NCBI GenBank assembly: GCA_963704885.1
Contig: CAVPIB010000004.1
Span: 928,001-992,000, forward strand
From: an uncultured Actinomycetes bacterium
GTDB taxonomy: Bacteria > Actinomycetota > UBA4738 > HRBIN12
Direction: 5' to 3'
Length of the DNA stretch: 64,000 nucleotides
Shown here: piece after piece, positions 4,817 through 54,519 of the stretch
Position numbering within the stretch: the stretch's first letter is position 1
How the letters are laid out: every line of letters begins with the position of its first letter
Translations under genes and position numbers: made by a program
The notes under the pieces: model-generated
What the model was told of the DNA's origin: nothing
The model's input: only the letters and a program-made list of their open reading frames with translations
The model's database searches: none

Positions 4817-6901
4817 ATGGGTTCGGACGGCGGGCCAGACAAGACCGGTACACCCAACGGCGAGCAGGCAACCGGGTCGGGCGTATCACGCCGACCGGTG
4901 AAGCATCGCGGACCGGTGGTGAGCAGGCGCGCGGCGCTCGGGATGATGGCGGGCGGCGCGGCGGCCGGCGTCGTAGGCGCACGGGTCGGATTCGGAGCAT
5001 CGAGCGGAGGGGATCTCTCGCAGATCGCCTCGGATCGAGGACTCGACGGCGACCAGGCGGCCGCAGCACTGAAGACGTTCGTCCCCGGGGGAAGCTTCGA
5101 CGAGTACTTCTTGATGGCGTCGGGCGGCCACTCAGGCCAGATGCTCGTGATCGGCGTGCCGTCGATGCGCCTGCTGAAGGTGATCCCGGTGTTCACGCCG
5201 GAACCGTGGTCGGGCTACGGCTACGGGACGGAACAGTCGATGGCGGTCCTGGCTGGGGGCTCCGATCCCGCTAAGTCGAACCCTCTCGCCTGGGGCGACA
5301 CGCACCACCCGGCACTGTCCGAGACCGAGGGTGACTACGACGGTCGGTTCCTCTACATCAACGACCGGGCCAACGGCCGGATCGGCATGATCGATCTGCG
5401 CGACTTCAAGACGAAGGAGATCTTCGACATCCCGAACCTCCAGACGTCCCACGGCGGGTGCTTCGTCACGCCCAACAGCGAGTACGTCCACATATCCTCG
5501 ATGACACCATGCCCTGCGACCGAGAGCGGCTACGCGCCTCTGTCTCGATACAAGGAGGACTTCCGGGGGTTCTCGACGTGGCTCGCGCTCGACCAGGAGA
5601 CCGGACGGTTCGTGAAGGAGAAGACCTTCCAGATCGAGTTGCCTCCGTACACGCAGGACCTTGCGGATGCGGGAAAGCTCACCAGCTACGGGTTCGGCTT
5701 CATCAACTCCTACAACACCGAGATGGCCACCGGCGGCAACCTGCACGATCCGTCGATGTCCTTAGAGGCCTCAGCGACCAAGAACGACTACGACTTCATG
5801 CACATCATCGACTGGCAGAAGGCCGAGGCGTTCTTCCAGGCCGGATCCGGGATCAAGAAGCTGAACGGCATGTCCGTCATCCCGCTCGACGCGGCGGTAG
5901 GCGAAGGGATCCTGCACTTCGCGCCGGAACCGCGGAACCCACACGGCGTGGACGTGAGCCCCACGGGTGACTACATCTGCGTGAGTGGGAAGCTCGACCC
6001 CAACGGCAACGTCTACTCGATGGAGCGGATCAAGGACGCGATCGCGAACCAGGACTATCAGGGCACCGATGAGTTCGGCGTTCCGATCCTGACGCTCGAG
6101 TCGGTACTCGAGGCGCAGGTCGAGCTGGGCGCCGGCCCACTGCACACACAGTTCGACGACAAGGGCCACGCGTATACGTCGCTCTTCTTGGATTCGGCGG
6201 TGGCGAAGTGGACGCTCGGCCCCAAGGCGGGGCATACCGACGACGCGTTCCAGTTGGTCCAGAAGCTGCCGGTCCACTACAACATCGGTCACCTCTGCAC
6301 GGCCGAGGGCGACACGGTGAACCCGGACGGCAAGTACCTGATCGCGCTCAACAAGTGGTCGATCGATCGCTTCCCGCCGGTCGGCACGCTCCACCCGCAG
6401 AACTTCCAGCTGGTGGACATCGGAGAAGAACCCATGAAGCTCCTATCCGACATGCCGATCGGCCTGGGCGAGCCCCACTACGTCCAGATGATCCACAGGG
6501 ACAAGTTGAAGAACGTCCTGACCGCGTACGAGCCGGCGACCGAACCCAGCGACTGGACGGTTTCCCCGTTCGCCACGGTGGCTGGCGAGGAGCGGATCGA
6601 ACGCGACGGCGACACGCTCCACGTCTACATGACCGCGCAGCGCTCTCACTACACGCCCGACATCGTGGAGGCGAACCTGGGCGATACGCTGCAGTTGCAC
6701 ATCACCAACATCGAGCAGACGCCGGACGCGACCCACGGCTTCGCGATCCCCTCGTACAACATCGAGGCCAGCCTCGACCCTGGCGAGGTCGTGAACATCG
6801 CGGTTCCGCTCGACCGGGCGGGTACGTTCGCCATGTACTGCTCGGAGTTCTGCTCGGCCCTACACCTGGAGATGCAGGGCTGGCTCCAGGTTGCCCCGTG
6901 A
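4817..6901 (+). CDS. nosZ: Nitrous oxide reductase, clade II-type, with twin-arginine-like leader
   Basis: All 7 CuZ His (DTHHP, SHGG, PHGVD, PLHT, IGHL, EPHY); CuA ligands THGF...CSEFCSALHLEM; clade II-type N-terminus SGGHSGQMLVIGVPSMRLLKVIPVF; SRRAALG followed by a hydrophobic stretch. Confidence 0.96.
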   Translation: MGSDGGPDKTGTPNGEQATGSGVSRRPVKHRGPVVSRRAALGMMAGGAAAGVVGARVGFGASSGGDLSQIASDRGLDGDQAAAALKTFVPGGSFDEYFLMASGGHSGQMLVIGVPSMRLLKVIPVFTPEPWSGYGYGTEQSMAVLAGGSDPAKSNPLAWGDTHHPALSETEGDYDGRFLYINDRANGRIGMIDLRDFKTKEIFDIPNLQTSHGGCFVTPNSEYVHISSMTPCPATESGYAPLSRYKEDFRGFSTWLALDQETGRFVKEKTFQIELPPYTQDLADAGKLTSYGFGFINSYNTEMATGGNLHDPSMSLEASATKNDYDFMHIIDWQKAEAFFQAGSGIKKLNGMSVIPLDAAVGEGILHFAPEPRNPHGVDVSPTGDYICVSGKLDPNGNVYSMERIKDAIANQDYQGTDEFGVPILTLESVLEAQVELGAGPLHTQFDDKGHAYTSLFLDSAVAKWTLGPKAGHTDDAFQLVQKLPVHYNIGHLCTAEGDTVNPDGKYLIALNKWSIDRFPPVGTLHPQNFQLVDIGEEPMKLLSDMPIGLGEPHYVQMIHRDKLKNVLTAYEPATEPSDWTVSPFATVAGEERIERDGDTLHVYMTAQRSHYTPDIVEANLGDTLQLHITNIEQTPDATHGFAIPSYNIEASLDPGEVVNIAVPLDRAGTFAMYCSEFCSALHLEMQGWLQVAP

Positions 6902-6927
6902 TCGGATCGAACAGGAAGGAGCAAGAT

Positions 6928-7368
6928 ATGCGCAGGTTCAGTCTGCTGGCGGCCGCGGCGCTCGCGACCGCCATGGTATTGGCCGCATGTGGCGGCGGTG
7001 ACGATGGAAGTGGTGACGGCGGTGGCGACGGAGGTGGCGACAACGGGGGCGGCGGCTCGACGGCCCTCGCGGTCACGGCCCCGAGCGGCGCTGCGAACGA
7101 CGGGTTCGCGGAGACGTCGCTCAGCGTTGCCGCCGACACTCCGTTCACCATCAACTTCACCAACGAAGACGAAGGCATCCTGCACAACGTGCAGATCTTC
7201 GAGGGAACGGATACGAGCGCAACGGCCGTGTGGACACCCGAGGGGAACGCCATGATCACCGGACCGGACGAAGCGCTCTACGAGATCCCCGCCCTGCCGG
7301 CGGGCACCTACACGTTCAACTGCTTCTCGCACCCGACCACCATGGTCGGGACGTTGACGGTGGGCTAG
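6928..7368 (+). CDS. Cupredoxin (type 1 blue copper) lipoprotein
   Basis: Lipobox LAAC, Gly/Asp-rich linker, HNV...CFSHPTTM (H,C,H,M ligand set); AGGAAGGAG RBS. Confidence 0.85.
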   Translation: MRRFSLLAAAALATAMVLAACGGGDDGSGDGGGDGGGDNGGGGSTALAVTAPSGAANDGFAETSLSVAADTPFTINFTNEDEGILHNVQIFEGTDTSATAVWTPEGNAMITGPDEALYEIPALPAGTYTFNCFSHPTTMVGTLTVG

Positions 7369-7381
7369 GGATCTGGAAACG

Positions 7382-8098
7382 ATGAGGATGGCGGCCGACC
7401 CGATCTCCCAGACCGAGCGAGCGAACGTGAACTCAACGCCAGGCCTCGGAGACACCCCTCCCGCCCCCGCGACCCCCTCGCGGACGCCGGGCATGCGGAT
7501 AGGGATCGGGCTCGCGGCCGCCATCCTCGTCATCCTGGCGTGGCGCCTCCCGATCTGGGAGGCAAGGCTCTCGGCGCCGCAGTACCCACTGGGGCTCTCG
7601 CTCAGCGCGGGCGCCCAAGGTGTTAGCGGAGACATCGAACAGATCAACGTTCTGAACCACTACGTGGGGATGGCGGCGTTCGATCCCTCGGACGCGCCTG
7701 AGACGGCTCTTTGGGTGTGGGCGATCCTGTTCGCGCTCGGGGCGGTCGCGGTGGCGACGGCGTTGGACGTTCGTCACCCGCTCGCTCGGCTGGCGCGGAT
7801 CGGACTGTGGCTCGTCCCTCTAGGCGCACTCGCCGACGTGCAGTACCGGCTCTACCAGTACGGGCACAGCGTCCAGCCCGACGCCACGATCCGATTGGAG
7901 CCGTTCACCCCTCTCGTTATCGGACCCACCCGTGTGCTGAACTTCACGACCTGGGCGTTCCCAGGCGGAGCGATCTGGTGCCTGCTCGGCGCAGCGTTCC
8001 TCATGAGCTTCGGGGCTCGCTTGATCTTGTGGGGCCGCGAAAGGTGGGCGACCCGGCCCATCTACGTGGACGATGACGTGGAGATCGAAGCGTCGTGA
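7382..8098 (+). CDS. nosB: NosB-like membrane protein of clade II nos clusters
   Basis: LPIW...APQYPLGL, INVLNHYVGM, YQYGH, PFTP motifs; about 4 TM segments; position between nosZ and nosD. Confidence 0.75.
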   Translation: MRMAADPISQTERANVNSTPGLGDTPPAPATPSRTPGMRIGIGLAAAILVILAWRLPIWEARLSAPQYPLGLSLSAGAQGVSGDIEQINVLNHYVGMAAFDPSDAPETALWVWAILFALGAVAVATALDVRHPLARLARIGLWLVPLGALADVQYRLYQYGHSVQPDATIRLEPFTPLVIGPTRVLNFTTWAFPGGAIWCLLGAAFLMSFGARLILWGRERWATRPIYVDDDVEIEAS

Positions 8099-9609
8099 GA
8101 CGTCGCGCGGTATTCGCCGTTCTGGCCCTTCTGGTCGTGGCCGCGGCCTCGGCGTACATGCTTGGCTGGTTAAGCAGCCCAACCGACCAGGTGGCTGCTC
8201 CGGTCCGGTCGGTCACCATGCCGGCGGCGCACCTGCAGTCCATGATCGATGCCGCACCCGACGGCTCCACGCTCGAGGTCCCGGCCGCGACCTACGCTGG
8301 ACGCCTGCGCGTCGATCATCCACTCACGCTGGTGGCACAGGGGAAGGTCGTGGTCGACGCGGGCTGGCTCGGCTCGGTCCTACGGATCACAGCTCCCGAT
8401 GTCACGGTTGATGGCTTCACCCTCCGTCGCTCCGGCATCGGCCCGGTCGGAGCGCCATCCGGGATCCTCGTTGAGAACGCGGATCGAGCTTTGATCCGCG
8501 ACGTCAGGATCGAGCACAGCTACATGGGGATCACTGTTCGTCGCTCAAGGAGCGTGTCCATCGAGGGCGTAACGATCGTCGGCGAGGGACTGATCATAGG
8601 GGAGCTCCACGCCGTGAACGCACCGTCCGACGCGCACGCCGGCCACGACATGGCTGATCCGGAGAGGAGCGTGGCATCTCCCGGCGGGCAGATCCGCGGT
8701 GACGGGATCTGGCTCTGGAACACCATCGACGCCGAAGTCAGGAACTCGACCATCACGGGCGTCCGCGATGGGATCTACGTCTCGTACGGGATTCGTTCTC
8801 GCCTGATCGGGAACACGATCGCCGACAGCCGTTACGCGGTTCACGACATGTACGCCGAGGATCTCCTGCTCCACGAGAACACGCTGACTGGCAACCTCTC
8901 GGGCCTGGTCCTGATGTACGGCGGGCCTGTAGACGTGATGGGCAACACGATCACGGAGTCCGGCAGTCCCTCCACAGGCTTCGGCATCCTGGTGAAAGAC
9001 GCCGGCGGCGTCAACGTTCGGCGGAACATCATCGCCGACAACCGCGAGGGGCTTCATATCGACGACGCAGGCCGAACGGGAGGAGAGCCCGTGCAGGTGG
9101 CGGACAACACGATCGCCATGAACCAGGTGGGCGTCCTGATCTTCCCGTCGGCCGACTCCGGGTTCACCGGCAACGGGTTCATCGAGAACTCCACCCAGGT
9201 CGCGCTCGGCGGCAGCGGGACCACGCAAGCAGATTGGACGGTGGGCGGCGTCGGCAACTACTGGAGCGACTACAGCGGATTCGATGGCGGCGGGGACGGA
9301 GTCGGCGACGTCCCCTACTCGGCCAGCGGGCGGGTCAGCAGGCTCCTGGCGGAGGAACCGCTCTTGGCCGCGCTCACCTCCGGCCCCGCCTTCAGGCTCC
9401 TGAACTCACTCGAGGATCGCTGGTCGGATGCCGTGCCCGTCGTGAACGATGACGCCCCGATCCTGACCTCGCGCGGTCCCGCGATGGGGGGTGGCCCCGG
9501 AGGCTCGCCAACCCTCCTGTGGCTGGCTGGAGGCGCCTTGATCACGGCGAGCGCATGGGCGCTGCTGCGCTCGCGAAGGCCGCGGAGGGGGGTGACCGCC
9601 CATGCCTGA
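8095..9609 (+). CDS. nosD: NosD, N2O reductase maturation protein (beta-helix)
   Basis: RGDGIWLWN, RDGIY, RYAVHDMY, GNYWSDY motifs; N-terminal signal and C-terminal TM. Confidence 0.9.
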   Translation: MRRRAVFAVLALLVVAAASAYMLGWLSSPTDQVAAPVRSVTMPAAHLQSMIDAAPDGSTLEVPAATYAGRLRVDHPLTLVAQGKVVVDAGWLGSVLRITAPDVTVDGFTLRRSGIGPVGAPSGILVENADRALIRDVRIEHSYMGITVRRSRSVSIEGVTIVGEGLIIGELHAVNAPSDAHAGHDMADPERSVASPGGQIRGDGIWLWNTIDAEVRNSTITGVRDGIYVSYGIRSRLIGNTIADSRYAVHDMYAEDLLLHENTLTGNLSGLVLMYGGPVDVMGNTITESGSPSTGFGILVKDAGGVNVRRNIIADNREGLHIDDAGRTGGEPVQVADNTIAMNQVGVLIFPSADSGFTGNGFIENSTQVALGGSGTTQADWTVGGVGNYWSDYSGFDGGGDGVGDVPYSASGRVSRLLAEEPLLAALTSGPAFRLLNSLEDRWSDAVPVVNDDAPILTSRGPAMGGGPGGSPTLLWLAGGALITASAWALLRSRRPRRGVTAHA

Positions 9610-10309
9610 ATCCTCCGACCGGTTCCTGGAGGTCGAGGACCTCACGAAGACGTACCGCGGCGGGTGGGGGCTGCACGACGTGTCGTTCTCGTTGGCCGGG
9701 GGGCGGATCGCCGCGCTCGACGGGCCGAACGGCAGCGGGAAGTCCACGATGCTCCGATGCCTGGCGGGACTGGTCCGGCACCACGGCCGGATCTCGCTGC
9801 GCGGTGAGCCCTTGAACGAGCGGCCCGACCTGCGCGCCGAGATCGGCTTCCTGCCTCAGTCCGTCTCCTTCCCCGAGCAAGCCACGATCGGCGAGGTGAT
9901 GGATCTGTTCGCCCGGCTCCGCGGAACGACGATCGACGACCATCCCTTCCCAGACGGGTTCGTGTCGGAAGACGATCGGCTGATGGGCGAGCTGTCCGGC
10001 GGTCAGCGGCACCGGGTGGCCGTCGCGGTGGCCTTGCTCGGACGCCCCTCGCTCCTGCTACTGGATGAGCCGGTCGCCGGCCTGGACGAGGCCGCACGGG
10101 GAACGTTCTGGGCAGTTCTACGCGACTTGGCCGATCGCGACGGTGTCACGTCGATCGTCTCGAGCCCCTTCCCCGCGGAGCTCCGCGGCGTGGCCGACTG
10201 CGCGCTCCACATGGTCGACGGGGACCTTCGCACGCTCGAGGACCCGATCCAGCCGACCCCTCTGCGGTCCGTTCACGGTCCTGAAGACCAGCTGGAGGCG
10301 AACGCATGA
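9602..10309 (+). CDS. nosF: ABC ATPase NosF
   Basis: Walker A GPNGSGKST, LSGGQ, LLLLDEP; follows nosD. Confidence 0.85.
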   Translation: MPESSDRFLEVEDLTKTYRGGWGLHDVSFSLAGGRIAALDGPNGSGKSTMLRCLAGLVRHHGRISLRGEPLNERPDLRAEIGFLPQSVSFPEQATIGEVMDLFARLRGTTIDDHPFPDGFVSEDDRLMGELSGGQRHRVAVAVALLGRPSLLLLDEPVAGLDEAARGTFWAVLRDLADRDGVTSIVSSPFPAELRGVADCALHMVDGDLRTLEDPIQPTPLRSVHGPEDQLEANA

Positions 10310-11139
10310 GCACCACGAACGCCACCACCCTGATCGCGTCGTGGGAGTACCGCACGGCGGTGCGCTCGCGGTGGGTCCTGACCATGGCGGCCGTCTTCGG
10401 CGGGCTGTGCGTGATCGTGACGCTCCTGGCCTTCCGCACGGTACGCGAGCTGGGCCTCACCGGGATCGGCCCCGCGTCGGCCACGCTCGTGAACCTCGGA
10501 GTGCTCCTCCCCTCCCTCATGGGACTACTCCTGGGAGCGGGGTCGCTGGCCGGGCAACGCGAGCACGGCCTGCTGGCGTTGGTCTGCGCACAGCCACTCC
10601 GGCGTTCGCAGGTGGCGACGGGAGCGGTGCTCGGCCTCAGCGCCTCGCTGCTCACGACCCTGGGCGTGGGGTTCGGCCTGGCGCTGCTGATCCTGGCCGG
10701 CGTGGCGCGGGGGACAGACCTTCCGGCGCTGCTCGCTCTGGCAGGAACGACCGCGGGCGTCGGTGCCGCGAGCGTGGCCATCGGTGTCGCGATCTCGACG
10801 ATGGTGGCCAGCCGGGTCCAGGGGATCTCGATCGCGGTTGGGCTGTGGATCCTCATGGCCCTCGGCGTGGATCTGGCGCTCGCCGCGCTGGCCCCCAGCG
10901 TCCATCTGGGACCGCTCGGCCTGCTGATAGTCGTGATGCTGAACCCGCTCGAGACGGGCCGGATCCTGGCTCTCCTGGCTACTAACCTCAAGGGAACCGC
11001 GCTCGGCCCGTTCGGCGCGTACATGGTGTCGACGTTCGGCACCGCCGGCGCCGTCGGTCTGCTGGTTGCCGATCTGGTGGCGTGGATCGCGCTGCCAACC
11101 CTTCTTGCCAGGCGCGCGCTGACCCGCGCAGACCTGTGA
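10306..11139 (+). CDS. nosY: ABC permease NosY
   Basis: About 6 TM segments, QREHG...QPLRR and LNP motifs; follows nosF. Confidence 0.85.
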   Translation: MSTTNATTLIASWEYRTAVRSRWVLTMAAVFGGLCVIVTLLAFRTVRELGLTGIGPASATLVNLGVLLPSLMGLLLGAGSLAGQREHGLLALVCAQPLRRSQVATGAVLGLSASLLTTLGVGFGLALLILAGVARGTDLPALLALAGTTAGVGAASVAIGVAISTMVASRVQGISIAVGLWILMALGVDLALAALAPSVHLGPLGLLIVVMLNPLETGRILALLATNLKGTALGPFGAYMVSTFGTAGAVGLLVADLVAWIALPTLLARRALTRADL

Positions 11140-11152
11140 AGGCGAGGTGTGG

Positions 11153-11584
11153 ATGAGGTTCACCAGACAGAGCCGCTACGCGATCGAAGCCCTGCGCGTG
11201 CTCGCGACCCACGAGCCCGACGAGATCGTGGACGCGCGCGAACTCGCCACGGAGGCGGGACTGCCGAGTCCGTACCTGTCGAAGATCCTCCAGCAGCTCG
11301 CGGCGGGCGGAGTCCTCAAAGCCGTGCGAGGGCGCGGGTATCGGCTTGCGCAACCCGCCGAGGAGATCCGGATCGACGAGGTGATCCGCACGGTCGAAGG
11401 AGGCGACGCCATCTGGGACGCCTGCATCTTCTGGCGCGAGGAGTGCAACACGGAGGACCCGTGCCCGCTCCACTTCCGCTGGCGGGAGCTGAAACCCGGC
11501 CTCCAGCTGGCCATGAACACCCTCACGCTGGCCGATGTGCGTGAGCGCTGGGCGCCGATGCCCAACAGCGTCTCAACGGCCTGA
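11153..11584 (+). CDS. Rrf2 family transcriptional regulator, probably Fe-S binding
   Basis: YAIEAL, PYLSKILQQL, RGRGYRLA winged HTH; C-terminal CIFWREECNTEDPCPLH (3 Cys + His). Confidence 0.9.
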   Translation: MRFTRQSRYAIEALRVLATHEPDEIVDARELATEAGLPSPYLSKILQQLAAGGVLKAVRGRGYRLAQPAEEIRIDEVIRTVEGGDAIWDACIFWREECNTEDPCPLHFRWRELKPGLQLAMNTLTLADVRERWAPMPNSVSTA

Positions 11585-11595
11585 GATCAGCGGCT

Positions 11596-11616
11596 ACTAG
11601 TCTGATTCAGACTAGT
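11596..11616. repeat. Palindrome ACTAGTCTGA-T-TCAGACTAGT (copy 1 of CTAGTCTG-N3-CAGACTAG)
   Basis: Read directly; overlaps the aminotransferase stop codon between convergent genes. Confidence 0.85.
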
Positions 11617-12767: not shown

Positions 12768-12856
12768 GCCGTGGAGACTAGCCGTTCGATGGTCGTCGCA
12801 GCGCCGGACCTGCGGGGATGAGCCGGGCCCGGAACCGGGTCGGATACAGTGGCCGC

Positions 12857-14131
12857 GTGGCGATCGGCTCCGACCTCCCCGCAGGCGTACGGTTCATCGG
12901 CGGTGAGTCAGGCGCCGCGGCGGCGTGGCCCTTGCAGGACGCGCCCGCCGACGCGGATCTCTCGTCCTGCGTGGCTTGCGGCCTGTGTCTCCCCCACTGC
13001 CCCACGTACCGGCTGACCGGCGAGGAGTCGGCCTCGCCGCGCGGGCGGATCACCGCCATGCGCGCGGTGAGCGAAGGCACGGCGACCGTCGATAACACGT
13101 TCGCGTCGTTCATGGATCTGTGCCTGGTCTGCCGGGCTTGCGAGGACGTATGCCCGTCGCACGTGCCGTTCGGCAGGATGATGGAGCGCGCGCGCGTCCA
13201 GGTGGAGCCGTTGCGCACCCGGCGGGCGCGGTTCGTTCGGTGGCTGGGGCTCGACATCGTCCTGCCGCACCCGTTCGTGCTGCGGGTCATGACGGCGCTC
13301 CAACCGATCGCGCGTCCGTTCCTGCGTCGCCGGATCCGCGCGATGATCCCGCGGCGTGCGTCGCCCTTCGCACGTCTGCCGCGCGAGACGGTCCCTCCCG
13401 AGGGCGTCGAGATCCGAGGAACGGTGGGGGTCCTGGCGGGCTGCGTCCAAGACCGGTGGTTCCACGAAGCCAACCGCGCCACGATCCGCGTGCTCGCCCG
13501 CAACGGCTGGCGCGTGACGGTGCCGCGCGAACAACGCTGCTGTGGCGCGCTTGGCGCCCACAACGGCCGGCTGAAGATGGCGCGGAAGCTGGCGCGACGC
13601 AACGCCCGGGCGTTCGCGGGCGTGGACCACGTGATCGTGAACGCCGCGGGCTGCAGCGCTCACATGAAGACCTACGTCGAGCTCGAGGAAGGGACGTCGC
13701 TCCCGGTCCGAGACCTGATGGAGTTCCTGGCGGAGGAGGGACTGACGGCCCAGCCCACCGAGCCGCTCACGGACGGCCTGATCGCCTACCACGACGCATG
13801 CCACGCGCTCCGCGCCCAGCGGATCTACGAGCAGCCGCGGACCGTGCTCCGCCAGATCCCGGGCATCCAGATCGCGGAGATCGCCAACGGCGACCGCTGC
13901 TGCGGGGCAGCCGGCCTATACAACGTGCTCGAGCCCGAGATGTCGGGACGGCTGATGCGCCAGAAGGCCGAGGCGATCCGGGATACGGGAGCCCGGGTGA
14001 TCGCGAGCGCGAACCCCGGGTGCAGCATGCAGATCGCCGCCGGACTCCGTGAGCTCAAGGTGGACACCGAGGTGGTCCACCCCGTCCAGCTGCTCGACCG
14101 AGCCTACGCTGCCTCGCCGGGTCAGGGCTGA
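12857..14131 (+). CDS. glcF: Glycolate oxidase Fe-S subunit GlcF
   Basis: Two 4Fe-4S motifs (CVACGLCLPHCP, CLVCRACEDVCP), CCG domains, YHDACH, ANPGC; GTG start follows TACAGT-N6. Confidence 0.85.
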   Translation: MAIGSDLPAGVRFIGGESGAAAAWPLQDAPADADLSSCVACGLCLPHCPTYRLTGEESASPRGRITAMRAVSEGTATVDNTFASFMDLCLVCRACEDVCPSHVPFGRMMERARVQVEPLRTRRARFVRWLGLDIVLPHPFVLRVMTALQPIARPFLRRRIRAMIPRRASPFARLPRETVPPEGVEIRGTVGVLAGCVQDRWFHEANRATIRVLARNGWRVTVPREQRCCGALGAHNGRLKMARKLARRNARAFAGVDHVIVNAAGCSAHMKTYVELEEGTSLPVRDLMEFLAEEGLTAQPTEPLTDGLIAYHDACHALRAQRIYEQPRTVLRQIPGIQIAEIANGDRCCGAAGLYNVLEPEMSGRLMRQKAEAIRDTGARVIASANPGCSMQIAAGLRELKVDTEVVHPVQLLDRAYAASPGQG

Positions 14132-35347: not shown

Positions 35348-35459
35348 CCGGCGACCGTACCCAGGACCTCGTTCGTGGCGCAAGGTGGCATCGTGGACCG
35401 GGCCGCGCAAGGTTCACGCAAACCCGAACGGATGCGCGGCGATATCCTCGTCGGAAGCT

Positions 35460-37731: not shown

Positions 37732-37822
37732 GCGACCCCTCGAGCGACCCCTATGACGTCGGCCGGACTACCATCCAGGTGCGCGGCGTCGCCTCGCGAC
37801 TTCCAACACTCAGGGAGCACTC

Positions 37823-42861: not shown

Positions 42862-42881
42862 TTCCCACGTTCCGGATGCGA

Positions 42882-42905
42882 GAGGGCGGCCCGTCGGCCG
42901 CCCTC
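42882..42905. terminator. Probable bidirectional hairpin terminator
   Basis: GAGGGCGGCC-CGTC-GGCCGCCCTC between convergent genes. Confidence 0.6.
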
Positions 42906-42930
42906 ATCGTTCCCGCCACAGGCGGGGCCG

Positions 42931-46116: not shown

Positions 46117-46127
46117 GGCGCGCCCCC

Positions 46128-46604
46128 TCAGGCCTTCGCGCCGCTCATGGAGCCGGCGGCATCCAGGATCGACTTGACGATGTTCTGGTAGCCGGTGCAG
46201 CGACAGAGGTTGCCCTCCAACGCCTCCCGGACGTCTTCTTCCGTGGGCGTCGGGTTCTCCTTCAGGAAGCTGGCCGCCGCCATGAGCATGCCTGGCGTGC
46301 AATAGCCGCACTGGAGGCCGTGGTTGCGATGGAACGCGTCCTGCAGCGGGTGCATCTCGCCGTCGGAGGCCATGCCCTCGATCGTGTCGACGGACCGGCC
46401 GTCGGCCTGCGCCGCAAGCAACGTGCAGGACTTGACCGACTCGCCGTCCAGCAGAACGGTGCAGCTGCCGCACGACGAGGTGTCGCAACCCACGTTCGTA
46501 CCGGTGAGCCCGAGGGTCTCTCTGATGAAGTACACGAGGAGCGTGCGCGGCTCGACGTCGGCCTCGCGCTGAATCCCGTTCACGGTGACGGAGACGTTGG
46601 TCAC
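46128..46604 (-). CDS. 2Fe-2S small subunit (CoxS-like)
   Basis: [24 protein letters not shown]. Confidence 0.92.
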
Positions 46605-46714
46605 TGGCGACTCCTTTCAGACCGGAGCTGTTGGGGCCGTTCGACAGTGCCGGAGTCTAGTCCTGTCCCTCACTCCGCGCGACCCGAGGAGTGCTCACGC
46701 CGTACCATCGGGGT

Positions 46715-47848
46715 ATGAGCGAGATCACCGACGTGCTCGAAGCCATCGAGTCGCTCTCGGCGAAGGGTGAACGGATGGCCCTGGCCACGATCGTGGCGGT
46801 CCGAGGCTCGACCTACCGGCGCCCCGGCGCCCGCCTGCTGGTCCCCGAGGACGGTGCCCCGATCGGCAACATCAGCGGCGGATGCCTGGAGGGCGACGTA
46901 GCGGACATGGCCAAGATAGTCATGGAGGAGGGCATCGCGCGACTGGCCGGCTGGGATCTCACGGCCGACGACGACGATGTCTGGGGCCTCGGTCTGGGGT
47001 GCAACGGGGCGATCGAGGTGTTCATCGAACCGGCCGACCGCGCCGCCGAGGTGGCCGGCGCGCTGCGGATGGCCCTGGAGGAGGAAAGGCCTATCAGTGT
47101 GGTGACCGTCCTCGAGTCCGCGATCGCAACCGTGGAGTCAGGTGCCCGGATCGTGGTCAAGCCCGATGGCACCGGCGAGGGAACGCTCGGCGACGATGCC
47201 GTGGACCAGGCGGCGACCGCGGCCGCGCTGGAGCAGCTCGCCGCCCAGAGCTCCGAGATCCGCACGATCCCCGGCGAGGTCCGCGCGTTCGTGGAGGTCC
47301 TGGAGCCGCCGCTCCGACTGCTGATATGCGGCGCGGGCCACGACGCGATCCCGCTGGTGAAGGCCGCCTCGATCCTGGGCTGGAACCCGATCGTGGTGGA
47401 CGACCGAGCCGGGTTCCTGACCCCCGAGCGATACCCCGAGGCCGCCGGGTTCGTCCACGTTGAGCAGCCGGACGAAGCAGCCAAGGCAGCGGCGGCCGAC
47501 GAGCGGACGTTCGTCACGGTGATGACGCACAACTTCCTGCGCGACAAGGAGTACCTCCGCTCGTTCCTGGGCTCCCCCGTCGCATACATCGGGATGCTGG
47601 GGCCGGCAGCGCGCACACAGCGGCTCTTCATGGAGCTAGCTGACGAGGGCGTGGTCATCACCGACGAGGACCGCGCACGTATCCATGGCCCAGCTGGGCT
47701 GGACCTGGGCAGTGAAGGACCGGAGGAGATCGCCGGCTCGATCGTGTCCGAGATCGTCGCGGTCCGACGCCGCCGGGCCGGTGGATTCCTGAAAGAAAGG
47801 CAGGGACCGATCCACGACCGCCCACGCCCAGGCGCCGAAGCGCGCTGA
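46715..47848 (+). CDS. XdhC/CoxI family Mo-cofactor chaperone
   Basis: GSTYRRPGA, SGGCLE, GLGCNG, GAGHDA, MTHN, PAGLDLG. Confidence 0.9.
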   Translation: MSEITDVLEAIESLSAKGERMALATIVAVRGSTYRRPGARLLVPEDGAPIGNISGGCLEGDVADMAKIVMEEGIARLAGWDLTADDDDVWGLGLGCNGAIEVFIEPADRAAEVAGALRMALEEERPISVVTVLESAIATVESGARIVVKPDGTGEGTLGDDAVDQAATAAALEQLAAQSSEIRTIPGEVRAFVEVLEPPLRLLICGAGHDAIPLVKAASILGWNPIVVDDRAGFLTPERYPEAAGFVHVEQPDEAAKAAAADERTFVTVMTHNFLRDKEYLRSFLGSPVAYIGMLGPAARTQRLFMELADEGVVITDEDRARIHGPAGLDLGSEGPEEIAGSIVSEIVAVRRRRAGGFLKERQGPIHDRPRPGAEAR

Positions 47849-47869
47849 ACCTCGGTGGGCGACCGACGC

Positions 47870-48112
47870 TCACACGTCGTCGCGCACGATGCGCACCACC
47901 ACCTCCGCAGTGGGGTGCCCGTTCGAGCGCCTGGACCTGAAGCTTCGAACGAGGATCGCGGTGAGCGCCGTGCTTCCGAGGATGACGCCCGCCACAGCCT
48001 TCAGCGACCGGACCGGGGCCGGGACGCGAGCCTCCAGCTCCCGCAGGTCGGTCTCGAGCTGACGGCGTGTCTCCTCGATCTCCTTCACCTTGCCATCTGC
48101 TGCTTGGCCCAT
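47870..48112 (-). CDS. Small hypothetical protein (DUF3618-like), downstream partner of the holin-like gene
   Basis: Coiled-coil EIEETRRQLETDL followed by a TM segment. Confidence 0.55.
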   Translation of the reverse strand: MGQAADGKVKEIEETRRQLETDLRELEARVPAPVRSLKAVAGVILGSTALTAILVRSFRSRRSNGHPTAEVVVRIVRDDV

Positions 48113-48507
48113 CGAGCGTCCTCCTTCATGGTCTCCCTCGTCCGCTCCCCCGCCGAAGGAGCCGTTCGCAGGGTGCGGCGCCCGACGAGCACGAGCACCC
48201 CCGCAACCGCAACGAGCAGGGCGGCCACGATCAGGATCGCCGCCCAGGTGGGCATCACCAGGGCGAGCGCCGCCGCGACCGCAGCCGCCGCGAACCCCAG
48301 GGCGAACAGCGCCACCGCGCCAGCTGCGGCCATCATCCCCGCGCCCTGCGCGCGGATCGATGCGGCCTCAACCACCTCGATCTTGGCGAGCTCGACCTGC
48401 TTGCGGAAGAGCGTGCGGGATCCATCGACGACCGACGCCACGACCACGCCGAACGGCCGCTTCGCCCCGCCCTCCGGGCTCTCTTGATCACCGTTTCGAG
48501 CACTCAC
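48085..48507 (-). CDS. Actinobacterial holin-like (YqjE/HolX-type) membrane protein
   Basis: LFRKQVELAKIE, 2 TM segments, ERTRETMKED. Confidence 0.75.
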   Translation of the reverse strand: MSARNGDQESPEGGAKRPFGVVVASVVDGSRTLFRKQVELAKIEVVEAASIRAQGAGMMAAAGAVALFALGFAAAAVAAALALVMPTWAAILIVAALLVAVAGVLVLVGRRTLRTAPSAGERTRETMKEDARWAKQQMAR

Positions 48508-48645
48508 GATCTGGCCTCCCTTCGTTGACTACCACTTCCTTACCCTACGCAGTCAGGTTGCCCGTTCCGGCCAGTCATGCGATAACGAACATCCGTCCGC
48601 ACGTCGGGCGGTCAGTCACGCGCCAGCGGAAGGAGATGTGCGCCC

Positions 48646-49515
48646 ATGTTGCCCTCTCGCTTCGAGTACCACCGACCGTCGACCCTGGATGAAGCCCTCG
48701 ATCTGCTCGCCACCTACGGCGAGGACGCCAAGGTGCTCGCCGGCGGTCAGAGCCTGATCCCCATGATGAAGCTGCGGTTCGCGTCTCCGGCTCACCTGAT
48801 CGATGTGAACAGGATCGCCGGCCTTGACGGCATCAGCGACGGCGACGGAGGCCTGAAGATCGGCGCCCTGGTCCGGCACAACCAGCTCGCGGCCTCAGAC
48901 GTGGTGAGCGCTCGCTATCCCACGATCGCCTCGGCGGCGCCGCAGATCGCCGACCCGTTGGTACGCAACCTGGGGACCATCGGCGGCTCGCTCGCCCACG
49001 CGGATCCCTCGGGCGACCTGGGCTCGGTGATGCTCGCGCTCGGTGCGAGCGTGGTGCTGAAGAGCGCGAACGGTGAGCGCGAGGTCCCCATCGGCGAGTT
49101 CTTGGTCGACACGTTCCAGACGTCGATCGCACCGGGTGAGATCCTCACCGAGATCCACGTGCCGGCGCCGGGTGCTCGTTCAGGCGGCACATACCTGAAG
49201 CTCGAGCGCAAGGTGGGCGACTACGCCACCGTGGCGGCCGCGGTCTTCCTGTCCATGAGCAACGGCACGATCGGCACCGCCGGCCTGGCACTCACGTCCG
49301 TTGGTCTGATGAACATCAAGGCCACCGCGGCCGAGGCCGCCTTGGTCGGCCAGGCGCCCGGCGTCGCCACTTTCGCGGAAGCGGGCCGGCTGGCAGCCGA
49401 GGCCTCGAGCCCCGTATCGGATGTTCGCGGCAGCGCCGACTACAAACGCCACATGGTCGACGTGTACGTCCGGCGCGGATTGGCGACCGCAGCCCAGATG
49501 GCCGGCGCGGCCTGA
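48646..49515 (+). CDS. coxM: Aerobic CO dehydrogenase medium (FAD) subunit
   Basis: LAGGQSLIPMMKLR, VRNLGTIGGS, KLERKVGD; first gene of M-S-L order. Confidence 0.9.
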   Translation: MLPSRFEYHRPSTLDEALDLLATYGEDAKVLAGGQSLIPMMKLRFASPAHLIDVNRIAGLDGISDGDGGLKIGALVRHNQLAASDVVSARYPTIASAAPQIADPLVRNLGTIGGSLAHADPSGDLGSVMLALGASVVLKSANGEREVPIGEFLVDTFQTSIAPGEILTEIHVPAPGARSGGTYLKLERKVGDYATVAAAVFLSMSNGTIGTAGLALTSVGLMNIKATAAEAALVGQAPGVATFAEAGRLAAEASSPVSDVRGSADYKRHMVDVYVRRGLATAAQMAGAA

Positions 49516-49537
49516 GCCCGAGGAGGAGACGCGAACC

Positions 49538-50023
49538 ATGGAAGTCACGATCAAGGTCAACGGAGCCGACAGGACGGCCGACGTCGAACCTCGACGTCTG
49601 CTGGTCCACGTGATCCGCGAGGACCTCGCCCTCACCGGCACCCACATCGGCTGCGACACGACGAGCTGTGGTGCGTGCACGGTCCTGCTGGACGGCGTCC
49701 CCGTGAAGTCCTGCACCGTGTTCGGGGTCCAGGCCGACGGCCGGGAGGTCACCACCGTCGAGGGACTGGCTACAGCGGCCGGTCTCGACCCTATCCAAGC
49801 CGCGTTCAAGGAAGAACATGGTTTGCAGTGCGGCTTCTGCACGCCGGGGATGATGCTCGTCGGTTCCGCGCTCATCGCGGAGAACCCGGACCCAACCGAC
49901 GACGACGTCCGGTGGGCGATCTCGGGGCAGATCTGCCGGTGCACCGGCTACATGAACATCGTGAAAGCGATCCAGGCCGCGGCGAAGGCGAAGGCTGAGG
50001 CCTCCGCACCCGCCAACGCCTGA
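49538..50023 (+). CDS. coxS: Aerobic CO dehydrogenase small (2Fe-2S) subunit
   Basis: GCDTTSCGAC, QCGFCTPG, CRCTGY; GAGGAGG RBS. Confidence 0.92.
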   Translation: MEVTIKVNGADRTADVEPRRLLVHVIREDLALTGTHIGCDTTSCGACTVLLDGVPVKSCTVFGVQADGREVTTVEGLATAAGLDPIQAAFKEEHGLQCGFCTPGMMLVGSALIAENPDPTDDDVRWAISGQICRCTGYMNIVKAIQAAAKAKAEASAPANA

Positions 50024-50043
50024 GCGGAAGGAGCCAAACGAAG

Positions 50044-52401
50044 ATGGTAGACACCGAAGAGATCCGCGGGATCGGACACAGCGTCCGTCGAGTGGAGGAC
50101 GACCGGTTCATCCGCGGCGCCGGCAACTACATCGACGACATCAACCTCCCCGGGATGCTGCACATGGCCATCCTGCGGAGCCCCTACGCGCACGCGAACC
50201 TCAAGAGCGTCGACGGTTCGAAGGCGCAAGCGCTCGACGGCGTGATCGCCGTCGTGACCGGTGAGCTGATGGCGCAGCACAACCTGGCGTGGATGCCCAC
50301 GCTGTCCGGCGACACGCAGGCGGTCCTGGCGACAGACAAGGTTCGGTTCCAGGGGCAGGAGGTCGCGGCCGTGATCGCGACCGACCCGTACGTCGCGAAG
50401 GACGCCTTGGAGCTGATCGAGGTCGACTACGAGCCGCTGGACCCGGTCACGTCCCCGCAGCAGGCGCTCGGGGCCGACGCACCCGTGATCCGCACGGACA
50501 AGGAAGGTCAGGCCAACGACCACATCTACGACTGGGAGACAGGCGACAAGGAGGCGACCGACGCGGCGTTCGCTGCTGCGGACAAGATCGTCTCGCTGGA
50601 TACGTTCTACCCGCGTTGCCACCCGGCCCCGTTGGAGACGTGCGGCTGCATCGCGGACGTGAGCCCGGCGACCGGTCAGGTGACGATCTACATGACGTCG
50701 CAGGCGCCGCACGCGATCCGGACGGTGTTCGCGCTGGTGGCAGGCTTGCCCGAGGAGAAGATCCGGATCGTGTCTCCCGACATCGGGGGCGGTTTCGGGA
50801 ACAAGGTTCCCGTCTACCCGGGCTACGTCGTGGCGACGGCAGCGTCGCTCCTGCTAGGCCACCCGGTCAAGTGGATCGAAGACCGGTCGGAGAACCTGAT
50901 CTCGACCGGGTTCGCCCGCGACTACCACATGCACGGCGAGCTCGCGCTGAAGAACGACGGGACCATGCTCGGTCTGCGGGCGTCGCTCCTGGCAGACGAG
51001 GGCGCGTTCTACGCCGACGCCCAGCCGTCCAAGTTCAAGGTCGGCTTGTTCCACATCGTGAGCGGGTCCTACGACCTGCCCGCGACCCACGTCACGGCCG
51101 AGGGCGCGTATACGAACAAAGCGCCCGGCGGCGTGGCGTACCGATGCTCGTTCCGCGTGACGGAGGCCTCGTACCTGATCGAGCGCCTGGTGTCTAACGC
51201 CGCCTACGAGCTGGGGATGGATCCGGTCGACATCCGGAAGAAGAACTTCATCCAGAAGGACCAGTTCCCGTACACGTCGTCGACGGGCTTCGTCTACGAC
51301 AGCGGCGACTATCAGGCCGCCATGGACAAGGCGCTCGACATGATCGGATACGACGACCTCCGCAAGGAGCAGGCGGAGGCACGGGCGCAGGGCAAGCTGT
51401 ACGGCATCGGCGTCGCGTCGTTCACCGAGGTCGTGGGGGCAGGTCCCGCCAAGGACTACGACATCATCGGCATCAAGATGAACGACGGCGCCGAGCTGCG
51501 GATCCACCCGACCGGCAAGGCGATCCTGAAGCTCAGCTGCCAGACGCAGGGTCAGGGCCACGAGACGACCTTCGCTCAGATCGTCGCCGGCGAGCTGGGC
51601 ATCCAGCCCGAGGACATCAAGGTCGTGCACGGCGACACGGACAACACGCCGTACGGATTGGGCACGTACGCCTCGCGTTCCACGCCCACGTCGGGCGCGG
51701 CGACCGCGATGGTCGCCCGCCGCGTTCGAGAGAAGGCGATGAAGCTGGCGGCACACCTGCTCGAGGTCGCCGAGGAGGACATCGAGTACGAGGCCGGGAA
51801 GTTCTCGGTCCGCGGCGCTCCGGATCAGGTGAAGTCGATCCAGGACGTGGCGTTCGCGGCGTACACGAACTTCCCCGAGGGCATGGAGGCCGGGCTGGAA
51901 GGCGTTTACTACTACAACCCGCCCAACCTGACGTTCCCGTTCGGGACCTACGTCGTCGCGGTCGAGGTCGACCCCGAGACCGGCGTGTGGAAGGTCCGGC
52001 GGATGGTCGCGGTGGACGACTGCGGCGTGCGGATCAACCCGATGATCGTGGAAGGCCAGATCCAGGGCGGGCTCACCGAGGGCTACGCCATCGCGGCGAT
52101 GGAGCTGATCACGTTCGACGAGGTCGGCAACGCGATCGGCACGAACTTCATGGACTACCTGATCCCGACCGCGTGGGAGACGCCGAAGTTCGAGCTGGGC
52201 GAGACCGTCACGCCGTCGCCGCACCACCCGATCGGCGCGAAGGGCGTCGGCGAGTCGGCCACGGTCGGCTCCCCCGCCGCCTACGTGAACGCGGTGATCG
52301 ACGCGCTGTGGCCCTACGGTGTGAAGAACATCGACATGCCGGTCACCTCGGCGAAGGTCTGGGAGGCGTTGGAGGCCGCTAAGGCAGGTTCCTCGGCGTG
52401 A
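50044..52401 (+). CDS. coxL: Aerobic CO dehydrogenase large subunit, form I
   Basis: Active-site loop GGVAYRCSFRVTEA (51136-51156), GGGFGNK, QGQGHET, PHHPIGAKGVGES. Confidence 0.96.
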   Translation: MVDTEEIRGIGHSVRRVEDDRFIRGAGNYIDDINLPGMLHMAILRSPYAHANLKSVDGSKAQALDGVIAVVTGELMAQHNLAWMPTLSGDTQAVLATDKVRFQGQEVAAVIATDPYVAKDALELIEVDYEPLDPVTSPQQALGADAPVIRTDKEGQANDHIYDWETGDKEATDAAFAAADKIVSLDTFYPRCHPAPLETCGCIADVSPATGQVTIYMTSQAPHAIRTVFALVAGLPEEKIRIVSPDIGGGFGNKVPVYPGYVVATAASLLLGHPVKWIEDRSENLISTGFARDYHMHGELALKNDGTMLGLRASLLADEGAFYADAQPSKFKVGLFHIVSGSYDLPATHVTAEGAYTNKAPGGVAYRCSFRVTEASYLIERLVSNAAYELGMDPVDIRKKNFIQKDQFPYTSSTGFVYDSGDYQAAMDKALDMIGYDDLRKEQAEARAQGKLYGIGVASFTEVVGAGPAKDYDIIGIKMNDGAELRIHPTGKAILKLSCQTQGQGHETTFAQIVAGELGIQPEDIKVVHGDTDNTPYGLGTYASRSTPTSGAATAMVARRVREKAMKLAAHLLEVAEEDIEYEAGKFSVRGAPDQVKSIQDVAFAAYTNFPEGMEAGLEGVYYYNPPNLTFPFGTYVVAVEVDPETGVWKVRRMVAVDDCGVRINPMIVEGQIQGGLTEGYAIAAMELITFDEVGNAIGTNFMDYLIPTAWETPKFELGETVTPSPHHPIGAKGVGESATVGSPAAYVNAVIDALWPYGVKNIDMPVTSAKVWEALEAAKAGSSA

Positions 52402-53325
52402 AGCCGGACGTCCTGGCGCTCGCCGCGGAGCTGTCGGGACGCGGTGAACCTTTCGTCCTTGCGACGGTGGTGTGGCGGCGGGCGCCATCGTCTGGCAAGG
52501 AGGGAGCCACCGCGCTGATCACGCCCGACCGGCGCGTGCGTGGTTGGCTCGGCGGGGCGTGCGCCGAGCCCACGGTGGTCCGGGAGGCGCTGAAGGCGCT
52601 CGAGGAAGGCTCTCCGCGCCTGCTGTTCCTGGGTTCGCCCGAGGAGCTCGAGGGGCGCGCGCGCGAGGGCGTCGTCACCGTTCCGATCGCGTGCCAGAGC
52701 GAGGGAGCACTGGAGGTCTACGTGGAACCGGTCCTGCCGCAACCGCAGCTCGTCGCGATCGGACGTTCGCCGGCGGCGAGGGCTCTCGCGGCGCTGGCGG
52801 CCGGTCTCGGCTGGCGGAGCCTCCTGATCGGGAGGAGAGCGCCGAGTCGGCGACGGGGTCGACGACCGGTCCTACGTCGTGGTCGCGACCCAGGGGCACT
52901 TCGACGAGGACGCCCTGGAGCGCGCGCTAGCCACGCCCGCGGCGTACGTGGGCCTGGTCGCGTCGCGCAAGCGCGCCGAAGCGGTGCTCGGGTATCTGCG
53001 GGACCGCGGCGTGGCCGAGGAGGCGCTCGCGCGCGTCCACGCACCCGCCGGGCTCGACCTCGGCCACGTCGCCACCGACGAGATCGCCGTGGCGATCCTG
53101 GCCGAGATCGTCCAGCTGCGGGCGGCCGGGTCGCTCGAGTCGGGGATGGTCACCGAGGCGCCCGCGCGGCACGAGGAGATCGACCCCGTCTGCGCCATGA
53201 CCGTCGACGTGGCCGATGCGCGGTTCCGGACCGTGCACGACGGACTCACTTACTACTTCTGCTCCGCGGGATGCCTGGCGTCCTTCACGAAGGATCCGGC
53301 GTCGTACGTCGCGGTCGCTCCGTGA
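52398..53325 (+). CDS. XdhC/CoxF-like protein with C-terminal YHS domain, one apparent frameshift near 52830
   Basis: GWLGGAC, CQSEG, then VVATQG, PAGLDLG, DPVCAMTV...YYFCSAGC in another frame. Confidence 0.8.
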
Positions 53326-53347
53326 CGGCACCGGTAGGCTGGTCGCC

Positions 53348-53942
53348 GTGCTGATCGAGAACGAGTTCACCGTCGCGGCCGACCCCGCGTTCCTGTGGAG
53401 CTACCTCTTGGACGTGGAGAAGATCGCGCCGTGCATGCCGGGCGCCGAGCTCACGGAGGTCGTCGACGACAAGAACTGGAAGGGCAAGCTCAACGCGAAG
53501 TTCGGCCCTGTTTCGCTTTCGTTCGCGGGGACGGTCGTCATGGAAGAGCGCGACGATGCGGCGCACCGCGTGGTGCTCTCGGCGAAGGGTATGGAGGCGA
53601 AGGGCAAGGGGGCGGCGAACGCCAAGGTGACGTCGTGGCTCGAGCCTCCGGTCGAGGGGAAGACGACCGTGAAGATGCAAGCGGACATCACGCTCACGGG
53701 CGCCGCCGCGCAGCTGTCACGCGGGCTTGCTCCCGGAGATCTCGAAGAAGCTGACGCAGCAGTTCGCGGACTGTCTGGAGCAGTCGATCACAGCGGAGAG
53801 CGGGGGCGGCGAGAAGGCGGGCGGCGAGGCAGCACCCGCGGTGGCCAAGCCCGTCGGCGGGATCGGCCTGGGCATCTCGGCGATCTGGTCGATCATCTCG
53901 AACTTCTTCCGCAAGCTCTTCGGGCTGAAGCCCAAGTCCTGA
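53348..53942 (+). CDS. coxG: CoxG (SRPBCC) protein, apparent frameshift near 53730
   Basis: IAPCMPGAEL, GAAAQLSRGL, then EISKKLTQQFADCL and an amphipathic tail. Confidence 0.8.
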
Positions 53943-53946
53943 GCCC

Positions 53947-54519
53947 GTGATCTCGGGCGTGGTGCTCGCAGCCGGAACCGGGTCGCGATTCGGTGCCACG
54001 AAGCAGCTCGTGGTCGTCGACGGCAAACCCCTGGCGCAACACGCGATCGACGCCTTGATCGACGGTGGGGTCGACGAGCTGGTGGTCGTGACGGGCCACG
54101 ACGCGGTCCGGGTAGCCTCGGGACTCGCGCTCCCCCCCGACGCACGGGTCGTCTACAACGCGGCGTACCGAGAGGGACAGTCGACGTCGCTCGGCGTCGG
54201 GCTCCACGCGCTCGACGACGACAGCGAGGCGGCCGTCGTTCTGATGGCCGATCAACCTGGGGTTGGGGCCGACGTAGTGCAGGCGCTCATCGAACGGTTC
54301 CGCGCCACCCGCAAACAGATCGTGCGCGCGATGTTCGAGGACGGGCCTGGCCCTTCGCTCTTGTCGCGCGAGATCTACGCCGAGGCGGGCCACCTGCACG
54401 GCGACGTGGGGGCACGCGAGCTGGTCGCTTCCCACCCGGAGTGGGTGGAGGAGATCCAGTGCCAGGGTCCGGCGCCGCGTGACGTCGACACCCCGGAGGA
54501 CCTTCCTACCGACCCCTAG
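53947..54519 (+). CDS. Molybdenum cofactor cytidylyltransferase (MocA-like)
   Basis: LAAGTGSRFG..KQL, ADQP, GDVGAR, DVDTPED. Confidence 0.85.
   Translation: MISGVVLAAGTGSRFGATKQLVVVDGKPLAQHAIDALIDGGVDELVVVTGHDAVRVASGLALPPDARVVYNAAYREGQSTSLGVGLHALDDDSEAAVVLMADQPGVGADVVQALIERFRATRKQIVRAMFEDGPGPSLLSREIYAEAGHLHGDVGARELVASHPEWVEEIQCQGPAPRDVDTPEDLPTDP

Follow-up and report, generated by a model that had tools for sequence, protein, structure and literature searches.

Neighbouring CO dehydrogenase and nitrous-oxide reductase operons in an uncultured actinobacterium: probably two independent respiratory modules

An uncultured member of the Actinomycetota carries, on a single stretch of its genome, the genes of a form I carbon monoxide dehydrogenase (CODH; cox genes), a nitrous-oxide reductase operon (nos genes) and a cassette of NrfC-like, NrfD-like and cupredoxin genes, which raises the question whether these loci form one electron-transfer chain from CO to N2O. 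A sequence-only reading of the stretch (G000:C4:928001-992000, 64 kb, hereafter the window) had proposed that such a chain is encoded completely, running from CO through CoxG and menaquinone, the NrfCD pair and a cupredoxin to NosZ. The window lies on a 1.14-Mb contig of a 3.0-Mb genome bin with 20 contigs, which is 97% complete with 4.5% contamination. Using Pfam and NCBIfam scans of the window we recovered every gene that had been named, each at its proposed position: coxMSL with the AYRCSFR motif, the CoxF-like, CoxG, MocA-like, XdhC and CoxD/E genes, nosZ and the quinol module. The chain itself fared less well. With a probability of roughly 0.7, we consider that the window holds two independent respiratory modules meeting only at the quinone pool, and CO would therefore feed N2O reduction solely in the generic way that is open to any quinone-reducing dehydrogenase. 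Taken together, cox and nos look like an ordinary combination and not a dedicated pathway.

The proximity of nos and cox is explained by the landing site of a 6.9-kb nos operon (plus strand, nosZ-cupA-memB-nosDFY-rrf2). In the genus-mate G011, which has no nos genes, an aminotransferase gene stands directly after glcE, and the gene order runs glcD-glcE-aminotransferase-glcF-RDD-coxE...coxD-MscS-sigma...form II-like operon-xdhC-coxMSL-coxF-coxG-mocA-nitrilase. In the genome studied here (G000) and in G024, which belongs to a different genus, it is precisely at this glcE-aminotransferase junction that the nos operon is found, with nosZ 43 kb from coxL in the window and 28 kb from it in G024. Seven other nos loci that were examined (G001, G100, G149, G051, G031, G061 and G169) have different contexts. 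The nos operon is a mobile, self-contained unit inserted into a region that was already beside cox, and the two operons are neighbours because of this insertion between glcE and the aminotransferase gene. As for the glc genes (2217-4705 and 12818-14131), glcD/glcE are parted from glcF by the nos operon plus the aminotransferase gene in the window and by the aminotransferase gene alone in G011.

The survey of gene distribution covered 201 genomes of the class, which span eight families of a single order; as these relatives are not independent, the p-values given here and below overstate the significance. Form I coxL scored above cut-off in 93 genomes and nosZ in 22, with none of the nine genus-mates carrying nosZ. 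Only six nosZ carriers (G000, G024, G040, G043, G061 and G090) also had coxL, i.e., 6/22 compared with 87/179 of the other genomes (odds ratio 0.40, p=0.07), and in one further carrier, G156, coxL is cut by a contig end (940 bits). There is no positive association between coxL and nosZ, so the survey of relatives that the sequence-only reading had called for returned nothing above chance. The nosZ carriers without coxL that are at least 90% complete include G001, G031, G039, G042, G071, G078, G100, G169 and G195. Using window positions 40893-42128 as the NrfD query (E<=1e-40), a match was obtained in 20/201 genomes, eight of which have orthologues of at least 72% identity; 15 of the 22 nosZ carriers have no NrfD-like gene at this threshold, and coxL is as frequent with an NrfD-like gene (9/20) as without (84/181; p=1). 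All counts include 15 genomes flagged as unpublished (G006, G026, G033, G059, G060, G083, G093, G094, G101, G120, G124, G137, G153, G166 and G197), among which G006 and G153 are coxL-positive, G060 and G137 are positive for a NirK-like gene described below, G166 is a genus-mate without nosZ or coxL, and none is nosZ- or NrfD-positive.

The nos operon proved larger than the sequence-only reading had recognised, cupA having been absent from its gene list, and all of its genes are intact on the contig:

4817-6901, plus strand: nosZ, nitrous-oxide reductase of the clade II sequence type (TIGR04246 746 bits, cut-off 625)
6928-7368, plus strand: cupA, lipoprotein cupredoxin (Pfam Cupredoxin_1 and Copper-bind; LAAC lipobox; H...C-x2-H-x3-M)
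7382-8098, plus strand: memB, multi-helix membrane protein of no named family, found in 9/9 relatives' nos loci
8095-9609, plus strand: nosD (Pfam NosD; TIGR04247 294 bits, slightly below the cut-off of 300)
9602-10309, plus strand: nosF (Pfam ABC_tran)
10306-11139, plus strand: nosY (Pfam ABC2_membrane_2), which with nosD and nosF makes up the maturation ABC system
11147-11584, plus strand: Rrf2-family regulator closing the operon (Pfam Rrf2, TIGR00738), found after nosY in 7/9 relatives' loci

NosZ remains below the cut-offs of the clade I model (TIGR04244, 396 bits) and the clade III model (NF052460, 205 bits). Its DTHHP motif and CuA loop CSEFCSALHLEM align to the corresponding residues of the solved NosZ 5I5I, a comparison that covered the CuA ligands C-x3-C-x3-H-x2-M and the N-terminal DxHHP histidines. 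The protein begins with a twin-arginine (Tat) signal, VSRRAALG, kept in 7/8 relatives, in place of the Sec-type signal that is characteristic of clade II. Part of PMC11539149 describes Sec export of clade II NosZ "with several exceptions", and therefore the twin-arginine signal is a known kind of exception.

The order nosZ-cupA-memB-nosDFY is kept across the nos loci examined, with cupA directly 3' of nosZ in 8/9 relatives' loci (tblastn missed it in G100). CupA is probably the direct electron donor to NosZ. MemB gave no Pfam or NCBIfam match, its nearest Atlas clusters are unnamed and no CxxCH motif was seen in it; the gene occupies the position of nosB in clade II clusters. With those clusters (Wolinella succinogenes, Gemmatimonas, Anaeromyxobacter) the window shares the clade II fit of NosZ, nosDFY and the membrane protein at the nosB position. 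In W. succinogenes the cluster reads nosZ-nosB-nosG-nosC1-nosC2-nosH-nosDFYL. By contrast, the operon in the window lacks nosG, nosH and nosC, encodes a Tat-type and not a Sec-type NosZ, has a lipoprotein cupredoxin where the cytochromes c stand and ends with an Rrf2 regulator, and no NosL (PF05573) was found in the 97%-complete genome. This is an actinobacterial type of nos operon in which a lipoprotein cupredoxin takes the place of cytochromes c.

The form I cox operon and two CODH maturation genes apart from it comprise:

46691-47848, plus strand: xdhC-type molybdenum-cofactor insertion factor opening the operon (Pfam XdhC_CoxI, XdhC_C)
47855-48487, plus strand: open reading frame (ORF) of 210 aa without a match in the Pfam and NCBIfam scans
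48646-49515, plus strand: coxM, the first gene in the order coxM-coxS-coxL
49421-50023, plus strand: coxS of the form I Mo-Cu CODH
50044-52401, plus strand: coxL (TIGR02416 1205.1 bits, cut-off 991.15; motif AYRCSFR)
52398-53354, plus strand: CoxF-like gene with an XdhC/CoxI domain (Pfam XdhC_CoxI, 65 bits)
53216-53950, plus strand, true start near 53354: coxG (Pfam COXG; SRPBCC domain), frameshifted
53947-54519, plus strand: mocA-type molybdenum cofactor cytidylyltransferase (TIGR03310 124 bits, below cut-off; Pfam NTP_transf_3)
15232-16413, minus strand: coxE, VWA protein for CODH maturation (Pfam VWA_CoxE, 213 bits)
16406-17287, minus strand: coxD, MoxR-type AAA+ ATPase for CODH maturation (Pfam AAA_5)

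CoxL, CoxM and CoxS are intact on the contig, and the CoxL translation reads GGVAYRCSFRV, which fits the AYXCSFR loop; its best solved relative is the chain annotated "CoxL" in PDB 8UEM (1113 bits). In line with the sequence-only reading, the part of 10.1101/2023.01.17.524042 consulted states that AYXCSFR is a marker of form I and that form I CODH reduces quinone. The operon shares the coxMSL order, AYRCSFR and a TIGR02416 score above cut-off with the characterised systems of Mycobacterium smegmatis (CoxSML/CoxG, 8UEM) and Oligotropha/Afipia (1N5W), from which it differs in that coxD and coxE are encoded on the opposite strand at a distance of 31 kb, where they are syntenic in G011 and G024, and in that coxG is frameshifted. 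Relatives match the CoxF-like gene as two separate halves. Three form I coxL paralogues suggested by three genome matches were rejected, as these correspond to the window and to two variant contigs of the bin, C2 (45 kb) and C3 (24 kb), which are copies of window 26-64 kb (comparison range 26097-64000).

CoxG deserves separate mention. According to part of PMC12202499, CoxG links CODH to menaquinone, as had been assumed in proposing the chain, is anchored to the membrane by its C-terminal helix and is essential for cellular CO oxidation. In the window a frame change at ~53,724-53,734 splits the SRPBCC domain from this helix, such that tblastn finds coxG in two frames, as opposed to one frame on C2 and one on C3; the helix is in frame in G011, G075, G024, C2 and C3. 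The combination of SRPBCC domain and C-terminal helix, in relatives and on C2/C3, is again that of the known form I CODH/CoxG systems. The form I operon predicts a capacity for CO oxidation.

We then turned to the rest of the genome. It encodes a Rieske/cytochrome b/cytochrome c set and a caa3-type oxidase together with ResB/CcsA. The gene immediately 3' of ctaG, a caa3 assembly factor, encodes a 357-aa protein with two cupredoxin domains (L036:14705-15778, G000:C1), and copper carriers seem to be widely used in the respiratory chain of the organism. The bin contained no detectable narG, napA or nirS, no second haem-copper oxidase (nor) or cytochrome bd and no NiFe hydrogenase or RuBisCO, and in lacking nar, nap, nirS and nor it resembles clade II non-denitrifying N2O reducers. 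The check for denitrification genes outside the window, also suggested earlier, was negative in these respects and returned one candidate: a NirK-like two-domain copper protein is encoded on the minus strand at G000:C1:281152-282579 (L035:2149-3579), scoring 197 bits on TIGR02376, below the cut-off of 296. It contains the motifs HSIDFH...YHCGV...HIANGM and a fused C-terminal cupredoxin with a copper loop resembling that of cupA, and 49/201 genomes of the class have homologues.

From the gene identities and order, the insertion site, the co-occurrence counts and the frame breaks we infer the following electron-transfer steps. The first module, an ancestral and syntenic form I Mo-Cu CODH operon, would oxidise CO and reduce menaquinone via CoxG: CO would be oxidised at the Mo-Cu site of CoxL, with electrons passing to CoxS, CoxM and then menaquinone presented by CoxG. 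Since no RuBisCO was found, CO would be a supplementary energy source and not a carbon source, and the organism, unlike carboxydotrophs, would be a carboxydovore. Menaquinol would be oxidised by the Rieske/cytochrome b complex, or by the NrfCD-cupredoxin cassette where it is present and intact. The second module would be the self-contained, horizontally mobile nos operon, with cupA as the probable reductant of the Tat-exported, clade II-type NosZ encoded next to it; on the outer face, a lipoprotein cupredoxin (cupA, perhaps cupB of the cassette) would reduce the CuA site.

Several observations weigh against this division into two modules. The nos-cox neighbourhood recurs in G024, so this strain is not the only one with the linkage, which selection could be maintaining. 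Part of the CO-to-N2O chain, namely the tie between NrfD and nosZ, may be real: nosZ is present in 7/20 NrfD-positive genomes and in 15/181 others (odds ratio 6, p=0.002), and nosZ or a NirK-like gene in 14/20 compared with 51/181 (p=0.0006). The proposed route from NrfCD to NosZ thus finds support in this enrichment, but not in the majority of nosZ carriers, which have no NrfD-like gene. In addition, this strain carries both nos and the cassette as accessory insertions, at most 31 kb apart. Finally, the genome-wide absences rest on one 97%-complete assembly of which 16,000 bases were excluded, and without NosL, albeit with nosDFY present, the maturation of NosZ is not assured.

The same enrichment bears on the nature of the cassette, which is encoded by:

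37823-39295, plus strand: HisKA_3 sensor kinase heading the cassette (Pfam/NCBIfam)
39298-39960, plus strand: NarL-type response regulator (Pfam/NCBIfam)
40069-40896, plus strand: nrfC-like four-cluster Fe-S protein with the Tat signal SRRSFLG (NCBIfam DsrO 197 bits, QrcC, TtrB, NrfC)
40893-42341, plus strand: nrfD-like quinol-interacting membrane subunit (Pfam NrfD 139 bits), 3' end damaged
42352-42861, plus strand: cupB, lipoprotein cupredoxin (Pfam SoxE, Cupredoxin_1, Copper-bind; H...C-x4-H-x2-M)

The order of kinase, regulator and cassette is the same in relatives (L001-L003, L005, L025 and L026). In relatives and on C2, a gene between nrfD and cupB encodes an exported protein of 190 aa that is anchored at its C-terminus and gives a weak Ig-like (Big_1) signal (L006:16057-16629; L003:11488-12057). 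CupB, which follows nrfD in relatives, is 30% identical to cupA. A 225-aa "cupredoxin" ORF in relatives was rejected, being the lipoprotein of 168 to 174 aa read from too far upstream.

An alternative that we hold tentatively, as possible but not probable, is that NrfC, NrfD, the Ig-like protein and cupB constitute a haem-free quinol:cupredoxin oxidoreductase, analogous to NosGH or alternative complex III, which would feed NosZ and the NirK-like enzyme from any donor and would not be specific to CO. Its parts are consistent with such a role: besides NrfD and a Tat-exported NrfC there are the Ig-like protein, which is exported and anchored at its C-terminus, and a lipoprotein cupredoxin that has candidate His/Cys/His/Met ligands. 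Neither in nor beside the cassette did we detect a cytochrome c or a molybdopterin domain, whether here or in L001-L003 and L005. The enrichment of nosZ or NirK-like genes among NrfD-positive genomes points in the same direction, as do a second NrfD type, 53-59% identical to that of the window and accompanied by a NirK-like gene in 9 of the 11 genomes that have it, and the cupA-resembling copper loop in the fused cupredoxin of the NirK-like protein. These figures hint statistically at an association between haem-free NrfCD-cupredoxin modules and copper N-oxide reductases. However, among the eight genomes with a close orthologue (at least 72% identity) only three have nosZ and four have nosZ or a NirK-like gene, and none of the loci examined has the cassette next to nos or nirK. 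CupB also has weak EfeO and CopI matches (NCBIfam) and might therefore serve in handling copper or iron, the caa3 oxidase might be the acceptor instead, and the copy on this contig is truncated.

Published descriptions of N2O respiration name two electron routes to NosZ, bc1 and NosGH. With NosGH and alternative complex III (ActABCDEF) the cassette shares NrfC-like Tat Fe-S and NrfD-like subunits, the lack of a catalytic molybdopterin partner and a small adjoining redox protein facing the periplasm. Unlike them, it has no haem subunits, presumably has a cupredoxin as acceptor, comes with its own two-component regulator and an extra Ig-like anchored protein, and lies outside the nos cluster: the NrfC/NrfD pair is separated from the nos operon by 28 kb and in relatives is found on other contigs or in unrelated surroundings, whereas the pair of NosGH is located inside the cluster. 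The multihaem ActA, monohaem ActE and large ActB with a molybdopterin-like domain that define alternative complex III have no counterparts in the cassette. A search of the paper library found none that joins NrfC, NrfD, cupredoxin and quinol.

The condition of the genes themselves leads to a further alternative, in which decay affects the CO branch, the NrfCD branch or both and the chain is non-functional in this strain. The frameshift in coxG, the deletion in nrfD and the broken state of one more operon would then be real lesions. This operon is:

42848-46488, minus strand: form II-like coxSLM operon with an AYRGAGR motif, divergent from the form I operon, in about six frame pieces in the window

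We regard decay as unlikely. The breaks and the deletion are present in the contig as given. Compared with C2, L001-L003 and L005, nrfD has an indel of 1 bp near 42,131 and has lost 503 bp at ~42,157-42,160. Together these changes fuse it to the tail of the next gene, and the deletion also removes most of the neighbouring 190-aa exported gene; residues 1-419 of the 459 in NrfD match relatives in one frame. The variant contigs differ from the window by true substitutions and indels, in a mosaic of identical blocks and blocks that are 3-10% divergent. Because of the substitutions in this mosaic pattern, we conclude that the bin is a mix of strains and that real strain variants exist. On the other hand, coxL, coxM, coxS and all nos genes are intact on the contig, and coxG is intact on both C2 and C3. 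Furthermore, frame changes also interrupt the sole gene for haem-copper oxidase subunit I and that for cytochrome b, leaving each in two frames (G000:C1:709158-710494 and 701897-703520, locus L036), and therefore many of the frame breaks in the window may be residual assembly indel errors. The key genes of this strain-mixed assembly should accordingly be read with caution. The nrfD gene is broken into at least four frames on C2, and on C3 the 5.2-kb cassette is missing altogether, window position 37734 being joined to 42941. The form II-like operon is also broken on C2 and is intact on C3, with an 834-aa open frame (L008:3999-6353). More generally, a gene that is intact on one of the three copies (window, C2, C3) is often broken on another.

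We consider it quite improbable that a dedicated and complete chain from CO through CODH, CoxG/menaquinone, NrfCD and a cupredoxin to NosZ exists and that CO-fuelled N2O respiration is a selected trait. All components do lie within one 50-kb stretch, the cassette is only 4 kb from the cox operon (with an opposite-strand operon between them), and a Tat-exported Fe-S subunit with an outward-facing lipoprotein cupredoxin would have the right topology for NosZ; the enrichment of NrfD-like genes among nosZ carriers and the recurrence of the nos-cox neighbourhood in G024 also fit. Against this, coxL is positively associated neither with nosZ nor with NrfD-like genes, most nosZ carriers have no NrfD-like gene, and G024 possesses nos and cox but no NrfD match. 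In relatives the cassette occurs in four contexts (helicase and adenosine deaminase, malic enzyme, cytochrome bd, amino-acid permease) and never beside nos or cox. The cox operon, the cassette and the nos operon form separate transcription units in a region shaped by insertions, and the claim of a complete chain conflicts with the frameshifted coxG and truncated nrfD on the contig. In addition, nos has its own cupA, and the Rieske/cytochrome b/cytochrome c complex offers a standard alternative route.

Related couplings are known from other bacteria. The isolates described by King in 2006 reportedly couple anaerobic CO oxidation to nitrate or perchlorate. Part of 10.1101/2023.01.17.524042 likewise names nitrate and perchlorate as acceptors for CODH electrons and reports CO-stimulated nitrate reduction in Parageobacillus sp. 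G301, a case of Mo-CODH-driven nitrate respiration that speaks for a dedicated chain by pairing a quinone-linked form I CODH with an anaerobic terminal reductase. Unlike in those systems, the acceptor here would be N2O, a plausible but generic extension of the range of acceptors. Genomes with both CODH and nosZ are already listed in PMC13502197 and PMC10581226. Our search of literature listings and abstracts found no report of CO-driven N2O reduction, which does not prove that there is none. If CO oxidation did feed N2O reduction, Actinomycetota of soils and sediments would link the sinks of two climate-relevant gases. In its most far-reaching form, which we consider improbable, the proposal comprises a haem-free route from CO via menaquinol, NrfCD and lipoprotein cupredoxins to the Tat-exported clade II NosZ, cells acting as a sink for two trace gases under hypoxia, and the NrfCD cassette as a new quinol:cupredoxin oxidoreductase serving copper N-oxide reductases. 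With regard to the two independent modules that we favour, the genes indicate capacity only, and the cox and nos sets are common partners of convenience.

That the nos-cox linkage is an artefact of a chimeric or strain-mosaic contig, as the contamination of the bin, the two variant contigs spanning window 26-64 kb and the mosaic divergence of these copies might suggest, is extremely improbable in view of the length of the contig, the even G+C content across the window (0.64-0.72) and the glcD-to-nitrilase order, which is the same in the independent assemblies of G011 (without nos) and G024 (with nos). On the basis of this synteny a chimeric join between the two loci, an objection that the sequence-only reading had raised to its own proposal, was rejected as unlikely. 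Elsewhere in the window, positions 30413-35410 on the minus strand encode a 1665-aa protein that combines OmpR-type DNA-binding and BTAD domains with a partial protein-kinase domain, an nSTAND1 NTPase and WD40 propellers.

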